The notes under the pieces: generated by a model
Database searches by the model: none
What the model saw: the letters and a program-made list of their open reading frames with translations, nothing else
What the model was told of the DNA's origin: nothing
Part shown: positions 62,312-62,527 of the stretch, piece after piece
Layout: every line of letters starts with the position of its first letter
Numbering within the stretch: the first letter of the stretch is position 1
Translations under genes and position numbers: made by a program
Origin: a virus
IMG/VR virus record: IMGVR_UViG_3300045253_000023
Location: 32,001-96,000 of that record
DNA length: 64,000 bases
Reading direction: 5' to 3' (one strand)

Positions 62312-62527
62312 ATTCAAGTTCCGAGCTATCGCGGGCAGTAACTCCTGTCTGAGGAAGTTCAGGACTGGCGCAAGGGACGTGTGGAAGATGGTACGGAACA
62401 TCGTTAACACCACCGTGATGATAGCCAGCAAGCCAAACAGAACTAGGGAATCTCTTGCCTATTGGTTCGGGTGGGTGCATAGTCGAATGATAGCATAAAA
62501 CAGAATCCTGGCTACGGGAACTTGAAT
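62312..62527 (+). ncRNA. rnpB: Minimal RNase P RNA
   Basis: P1 ATTCAAGTTCC/GGAACTTGAAT, P2 GCTATC/GATAGC, P3, CR-I GAGGAAGTTCAGG, CAAGCCAAA, CR-V AACAGAATCCTGGCTA. Confidence 0.85.

Follow-up and report, generated by a model that had tools for sequence, protein, structure and literature searches.

The far end of a phage tRNA array raises the question of whether a virus can carry its own RNase P RNA, and whether it can do so in a form without the specificity domain (S-domain). RNase P RNA is one of two universal ribozymes and is regarded as a cellular or organellar gene, while the known translation toolkit of phages comprises tRNAs, tmRNA and synthetases. A first-pass annotation of the DNA had proposed a phage RNase P RNA with its catalytic domain (C-domain) and without most of the S-domain. 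That identification is borne out here by support for helix P4 from the Rfam model RF00373, by covariation across a family of relatives, and by identity to E. coli M1 RNA in the core.

Genomic context of the RNA gene

The window, the whole stretch of 64,000 nucleotides that was analysed, covers bases 32001-96000 of a virus record that is complete, at 161,561 bp, and has direct terminal repeats. The genome belongs to a T4-like myovirus, with terminase, sheath, portal, T4-type DNA polymerase and a gp46-like nuclease. Identity of its DNA polymerase to that of any GenBank phage is at most 38.5%, so the phage has no close cultured relative.

About 34 tRNA genes, identified by Rfam and ARAGORN together, occupy the + strand from 43.5 to 62.3 kb of the window. 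The RNase P-like RNA gene lies at the end of this array on the same strand. The last tRNA of the array is tRNA-Arg(CCT) with an encoded CCA (62235-62307, +), scored by Rfam at 62235-62304 with 38.9 bits and followed by its CCA at 62305-62307. The RNA gene starts 4 nt past that CCA, a spacing that the first-pass annotation had read correctly. In the Rfam alignment this tRNA has positions 7-9 deleted, that is, it appears without the linker between acceptor and D-stem, and ARAGORN misses it.

The 28 tRNAs that Rfam finds in the window all encode CCA, have T at -1 in most cases, and score as ordinary tRNAs. About nine tRNA-like genes of the window are found by only one of the two tRNA finders, so several tRNA-like genes of the phage are atypical, as had been suspected. 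ARAGORN alone calls six (43656-43723, 48627-48707, 49519-49592, 55757-55833, 57807-57901 and 58428-58503), one of them 95 nt long. Rfam alone makes two weak calls, at 49602-49681 and 50705-50782 (29.7 and 33.1 bits).

A promoter scan returned no dedicated promoter just upstream of the RNA gene, and promoter-like sites were no commoner than in shuffled sequence. The nearest strong terminator-like hairpin on the + strand is at 63677-63700. Two ORFs overlap the RNA gene in the window, and a small ORF with a Shine-Dalgarno sequence sits 3' of it; Pfam shows no RNA-processing domain in the adjoining ORFs. Within the tRNA region, a 468-aa protein (59070-60476, +) matches DUF2828/DUF7788 and PHROG 850 ('RNA-binding protein'), and may be part of an RNA-handling module.

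Covariance model matches and core identity to E. coli M1 RNA

Model RF00373 (RNaseP_arch) aligns globally to the RNA, model positions 1-288, with 46.6 bits. The E-value is 4.4e-12 in a local search and 3.1e-13 against the whole 161.5-kb genome. The alignment matches GAGGAA, AGCAAG, UAGUCGAAU and ACAGAA. The score does not reach the gathering score of 84, which is why a default Rfam scan lists only tRNAs and no RNase P. Searched against the whole phage genome, RF00010 (bacterial type A; gathering score 100 bits) has no match at E <= 10, and neither has RF02357 (type T) at the same limit. The first-pass annotation had looked to the Rfam RNase P models for confirmation, and it came in part: RF00373 recovers P4, below its gathering score, while RF00010 and RF02357 recover nothing. 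Three copies from other members of the family described below (DLP6, L159 and L007) have no RNase P match at E <= 1, so Rfam is unsuited to a census of the family.

The E. coli rnpB reference was taken from its RefSeq record, and the core was lined up by structure. Five core segments were compared: J3/4 with the P4 5' strand; P5-J5/15-P15-L15; the 3' side of L15 with GGU; J18/2; and J2/4 with the P4 3' strand. Over these segments, 55 of 70 positions are identical to E. coli M1 RNA. The two sides of the L15 internal loop are as long as in E. coli, AAACA/GGGUG here against AAAUA/GGGUA there. The 7-bp P2 and the 3-nt J5/15 linker are bacterial values (PMC3579882). The better score of the archaeal model thus reflects its tolerance of deletions and not ancestry, given that core, P2 and J5/15 are bacterial-like. 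As part of the explanation that we favour as a whole and consider probable, the RNA would be of bacterial type-A descent despite the higher archaeal score. Judged by its core sequence, it is an RNase P RNA, yet it falls outside every curated Rfam subfamily, and it is viral.

Structural elements of the miniature RNA

The gene is 216 nt long (62312-62527, +); the RF00373 global match covers 62313-62526, and the ends are delimited by P1. Numbering of the RNA from 1 to 216 is obtained by subtracting 62311 from the window coordinate. The first-pass annotation had located P1, P2, P3, both strands of P4, CTGGC at 62365 and GCCAG at 62424, and each lies where it was placed. The order of elements, which it had recognized as that of bacterial RNase P RNA, is confirmed by a P1-P3, P4, P5, P15-P17 fold that covaries among relatives.

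P1 consists of eleven perfect pairs, ATTCAAGTTCC (62312-62322) with GGAACTTGAAT (62517-62527), evident in the sequence; its inner pairs covary. P2, GCTATC/GATAGC, has 7 bp (62325-62331 with 62488-62494), is 99-100% paired across relatives, and shows change on both sides in 5-6 of its 7 pairs. The P3 hairpin, GGGCAG/CTGTCT (62332-62351), also has covarying pairs, and its length varies across the family.

J3/4 (GAGGAA) and the 5' strand of P4 occupy 62351-62364 and agree with E. coli 61-75 at 11 of 15 positions. The 3' strand of P4, UCCUGGCU (62506-62513), forms a pseudoknot with 62356-62364 that is 98-100% paired and changes on both sides in three pairs. The pairing joins GAGGAAGTTCAGG to the TCCTGGCT part of AACAGAATCCTGGCTA. 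A change from U.G to C-G within P4 fixes the register, so that the bulged U is residue 62359, in the place of E. coli U69. Thus CR-I (GAGGAA-AGUCC-type) and CR-V (ACAGAA plus the P4 3' strand), two parts of the universal core, form the P4 pseudoknot with its bulged U, and the P1-P2-P3 framework and the CR-IV region (J5/15, J18/2) accompany them.

P5, CUGGC/GCCAG (62365-62369 with 62424-62428), becomes CUGCC/GGCAG or CUAUU/GAUAG in divergent members. P6 was sought because a C-domain-only E. coli RNase P RNA is reported to depend on a P6-like contact (PMC5839562). It is found as a pseudoknot of CAAGGG (62371-62376) with CUCUUG in the P16/17 loop (62452-62457). All 15 members compared have at least six contiguous pairs in this helix, in 13 distinct sequences, with a mean of 7.3 bp against 4.85 in shuffled loops.

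The strands of P5 are separated by 54 nt in this RNA (about 55 had been estimated where the S-domain normally sits); family members have 41-235 nt there, and E. coli about 164 nt. The S-domain remnant, at 62377-62423, has a single bulged helix, in which 62377-62384 pairs with 62410-62416, together with a small hairpin and a GUGAU linker that is conserved. The helix is conserved too, with one compensatory pair (G-C to A-U), and is placed like P7. The CR-II/CR-III specificity domain (the P10-P12 region, for T-loop binding) is absent, and the RF00373 alignment deletes the S-domain columns. No member of the family has a recognizable S-domain; where the region between the P5 strands is long in relatives, insertions account for the added length.

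J5/15, CAA, spans 62429-62431, and its adenosines 62430 and 62431 are placed as A248/A249 of E. coli in the rnpB alignment. P15, the L15 internal loop and the P16/17 hairpin follow at 62432-62476, with change on both sides in 3 of 3 P15 pairs and 7 of 9 P16 pairs. L15 has AAACA on its 5' side and GGGUG on its 3' side, with the GGU at 62470-62472. J18/2, UAGUCGAAUGA (62480-62490), follows P15 without a P18 between them and matches E. coli 327-337 at 9 of 11 positions. J2/4, AUAAAACAGAA (62495-62505), includes the ACAGAA of CR-V and is matched by the RF00373 consensus. P18 and the P8/P18 interdomain contact are absent, with 5 nt between the 3' strand of P15 and J18/2 in this RNA. The P18 site is likewise empty in 32 of 52 members, and holds an insert of 30-194 nt in the other 20. 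Neither the P6 pseudoknot nor the loss of P18 had been remarked in the first-pass annotation.

A family of related RNAs in phages

A blastn search of GenBank phages returned a single record, Stenotrophomonas phage DLP6, in which the matching sequence lies in an unannotated gap of the tRNA array, at about 105774-106018 of KU682439.2 (L001:2960-3204). Nucleotide identity in the core of the RNA is 74-78%. The family was then assembled from motif scans of IMG/VR followed by nhmmer. This yielded 76 loci; 62 copies are full-length, and these comprise 52 distinct sequences. The RNAs span 181-515 nt. Contigs that carry them are up to 533 kb in length and include jumbo phages of 368-533 kb as well as the cultured phage DLP6.

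In an alignment of 10 distinct sequences, 98.2% of cells are paired, and 25 of 51 pairs change on both sides. In a set of 15 more divergent sequences, 94.7% of cells are paired, against 27-44% when the partners are slid, and 0 of 500 shuffles reached that value. Compensatory change affects 29 of 47 pairs in the set of 15 and involves every helix. None of the 52 distinct sequences departs from the P4 bulged U, the J5/15 AA or the L15 GGU, residues of catalysis and substrate contact that are under purifying selection, and the ACAGAA of J2/4 hardly varies. Protein coding was considered and rejected: 13 of 15 members have no frame open throughout, and indels are mostly not multiples of three. Since the fold covaries, the core residues are invariant and no reading frame is conserved, the locus is a functional RNA gene, and not a relic or a coincidence.

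Of the 120 loci listed from cellular genomes, only two belong to the family, L300:221-392 and L329:3676-3886, on contigs from bacterial MAG bins. Each has the minimal form of the RNA. The L300 locus, 2.3 kb long and with two tRNA genes, is probably phage DNA binned into a MAG. The remaining motif matches among those 120 loci were set aside as mostly chance.

Insertions in family members

In two loci, L007:2620-3540 (-) on a 435-kb phage contig and L012 on a 40-kb contig, the RNA gene is interrupted just after the 5' strand of P4. The interruption is about 610 nt long and carries a 199-aa ORF for a GIY-YIG-type homing endonuclease. These copies lack the 5' strand of P5 but keep the 3' two-thirds of the RNA intact; they could encode a split RNA or be disabled genes. 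In two further loci, L063:7203-7772 and L116:1667-2236, a 189-aa homologue of the same endonuclease ends within the first bases of P1, which suggests that a mobile GIY-YIG endonuclease family homes to the conserved RNA gene.

A second type of insertion is a nested element of about 130-150 nt. It occurs in the hairpin of the S-domain stub in L204:5482-5825, L159:341-683 (-) and L170:337-680, and at the P18 site in L063:7767-8204 and L116:2231-2747. The element, which a flanking stem closes, starts with GGGGCAU and ends in a T-arm and UCCACCA. It resembles either a tRNA or the tRNA-like end of a tmRNA, and goes uncalled by both ARAGORN and Rfam. Its removal by processing would split the ribozyme in two. 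The tRNA region of the L116 phage also encodes a permuted tmRNA at L116:9827-10147 (+), recognized by RF04321 with 88.3 bits.

Association with tRNA genes and search for a protein partner

Genes for tRNAs are present at 69 of the 75 family loci on viral contigs (935 called by ARAGORN), compared to 5 of 130 other viral loci. These 130 control loci are mostly chance matches of a loose 14-mer scan, and their 13 tRNAs are too few for a comparison of CCA or of the -1 residue. The family RNA shares its strand with 783 of 784 tRNAs and often lies 1-14 nt from one. At the median locus, 97% of the tRNAs have an encoded CCA, and T occurs at -1 in 73% of tRNAs across the family. Some arrays that bear the RNA encode no CCA, although the GGU is invariant.

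The first-pass annotation had offered the reduced S-domain as a fit to the non-canonical tRNAs of this phage. That reading looks too specific, because the same type of RNA occurs in at least 69 other viral tRNA arrays and 28 tRNAs of the window are ordinary.

RnpA (PF00825) was found neither in this phage nor in five other genomes that bear the RNA, namely four complete jumbo phages and DLP6. With no RnpA in these six genomes, a partner supplied by the host must be assumed. No linked protein cofactor emerged from the neighbourhoods, as no neighbour is common to more than three of the 17 loci examined.

Proposed function and alternative explanations

By homology, structure, conservation and context, the locus is a conserved gene for a miniature RNase P RNA. 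Its expression, protein partner, catalysis and substrates we infer. Reasoning from sequence comparison, we think it probable that the RNA is a working miniature RNase P, one that is released from the tRNA operon, binds host RnpA, and cuts the 5' leaders of pre-tRNAs without a check of the elbow. The RNA would be transcribed with the phage tRNA operon and freed by the same processing as the tRNAs. Its complete catalytic domain would fold, with P1-P6, P15-P17, the bulged U, the J5/15 adenosines, the L15 GGU, J18/2 and J2/4, and would assemble with host RnpA, whose RNA contacts in the bacterial holoenzyme all lie in the C-domain. The enzyme would then cleave 5' leaders of pre-tRNAs, chiefly those of the phage itself. 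Because the S-domain is missing, the RNA cannot read the T/D-loop elbow, and substrates would be bound through catalytic-domain contacts only, that is, to the acceptor stem, between the -1 residue and a J5/15 adenosine, and between the 3' CCA and GGU. To a broader proposal we give somewhat better than even credence: in large phages an elbow-blind RNase P RNA and captured host RnpA would make up a hybrid enzyme. This enzyme would tell substrates apart only by acceptor stem, -1 U and 3' CCA, and would put tRNA maturation during infection in the hands of the phage.

Work on the E. coli RNA bears on the proposed miniature RNase P from both sides. The E. coli C-domain alone cleaves, requires the P6-like contact, and has no use for P18 once the S-domain is gone (PMC5839562), findings that match what the phage RNA keeps (P6) and has lost (P18). 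Deletion of the S-domain from the E. coli RNA also lowers efficiency about 500-fold in vitro (PMC5839562), which counts against the proposal.

Two other roles can be imagined for an RNA of this structure. It might mainly bind host RnpA, as a sponge or specificity switch that starves or redirects host RNase P. None of the six phage genomes has an RnpA gene, and the RNA retains P2/P3, J18/2, J2/4 and P15, regions that contact protein in the bacterial holoenzyme structure; both points would suit such a role. A decoy role has also been discussed for the camelpox RNase P-like RNA (PMC3001073). A pure decoy, however, has no need of an invariant P4 bulged U, J5/15 AA and L15 GGU (all 52 of 52), nor of P6, and placement inside tRNA operons points to tRNA maturation; we therefore judge this role unlikely. 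Alternatively, the RNA might be an active ribozyme directed less at canonical pre-tRNAs than at other structures, hairpin-CCA-like or not, in transcripts of the phage or the host, such as operon spacers, mRNAs and tRNA-like elements. C-domain-only RNase P RNAs do cleave model hairpin substrates (PMC5839562). The nested tRNA-like element inside the RNA of some relatives, and the nine or so window genes that only one tRNA finder calls, could be read in the same way. The association of the family is nevertheless with ordinary tRNA genes, 935 of them in 69 loci, and CCA and -1 U, the marks of classical bacterial RNase P substrates, are the norm among them, which makes a preference for other substrates quite unlikely.

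The remaining possibility is that the locus is functionless, whether a decaying relic of a captured host rnpB, a chance look-alike or a short protein gene. A score below all Rfam gathering thresholds and the two overlapping ORFs speak for this reading. Against this, the core is still 74-78% identical to that of DLP6 although the DNA polymerase of the phage is no more than 38.5% identical to that of any GenBank phage; every helix shows compensatory changes, the core is invariant, and no reading frame is conserved. Covariation in 15 sequences, the invariant core in 52 and the lack of a conserved frame effectively refute this explanation, which we consider very improbable indeed. A miniature RNase P acting on pre-tRNAs would best account for the retained core and its setting.

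Significance

No description of a phage RNase P RNA was found in a full-text literature search that covered few subscription journals, so a prior description is possible. A 2024 review of RNase P describes none, and the paper on DLP6 never mentions RNase P. If the proposed function is true, the phage RNA would be the first RNase P RNA with a real catalytic core to be encoded by a virus, and its enzyme the first bacterial-type RNase P in nature to work without a specificity domain. A conserved viral family would add an architectural type beside bacterial A and B and archaeal A, M and T, and would extend the phage translation toolkit to tRNA processing. It would also explain a recurrent unannotated gap in the tRNA arrays of large phages, where current Rfam models largely miss the RNA. 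The family would offer a natural system in which to ask what share the S-domain really has in substrate recognition, and the cultured phage DLP6 makes it directly testable.

Comparison with known systems

E. coli M1 RNA (type A, RF00010) is among the closest known RNAs. It and the phage RNA share P1-P6, P15-P17, the 7-bp P2, the 3-nt J5/15, the L15 GGU, J18/2 and J2/4. They differ in the S-domain, where P7-P14 of about 164 nt in M1 RNA compares to 54 nt here, in P18, which the phage copy lacks, and in the 3' strand of P4, which reads GGCUA in the phage RNA and GGCUUA in M1 RNA. Unlike type A RNAs, the phage RNA is encoded by a virus, inside a tRNA operon, and goes unmatched by RF00010.

The engineered Eco CP RPR (PMC5839562) has, like the phage RNA, a C-domain without an S-domain; its activity needs a P6-like contact but no P18, and the phage RNA keeps P6 and lacks P18. 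The engineered RNA is a laboratory deletion with about 500-fold lower efficiency, whereas the phage RNA is a natural, conserved gene with a conserved stub (helix plus GUGAU linker). If the phage RNA is active, nature would have reached the catalytic-domain-only design that biochemists made by deletion.

Camelpox virus and other orthopoxviruses encode an RNA proposed to be RNase P-like, with only a loose likeness in secondary structure and no pre-tRNA cleavage, as a review relates (PMC3001073). The inactive camelpox RNA is a warning that resemblance is not activity, though its resemblance is far weaker. In the phage RNA, by contrast, the universal core sequences are present, a covariance model matches, and base pairs covary.

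A natural counterpart is the archaeal type T RNA of Thermoproteaceae, about 200 nt long, which keeps its C-domain intact but has lost most of the S-domain, and which earlier covariance models also missed (PMC3579882). In type T, P2 has 3 bp, the P5/P15 linker has 2 nt and P15 is shortened (PMC3579882), and the RNA works with archaeal proteins; the phage RNA has a 7-bp P2 and the 3-nt CAA. The two look like independent, convergent reductions of RNase P RNA.
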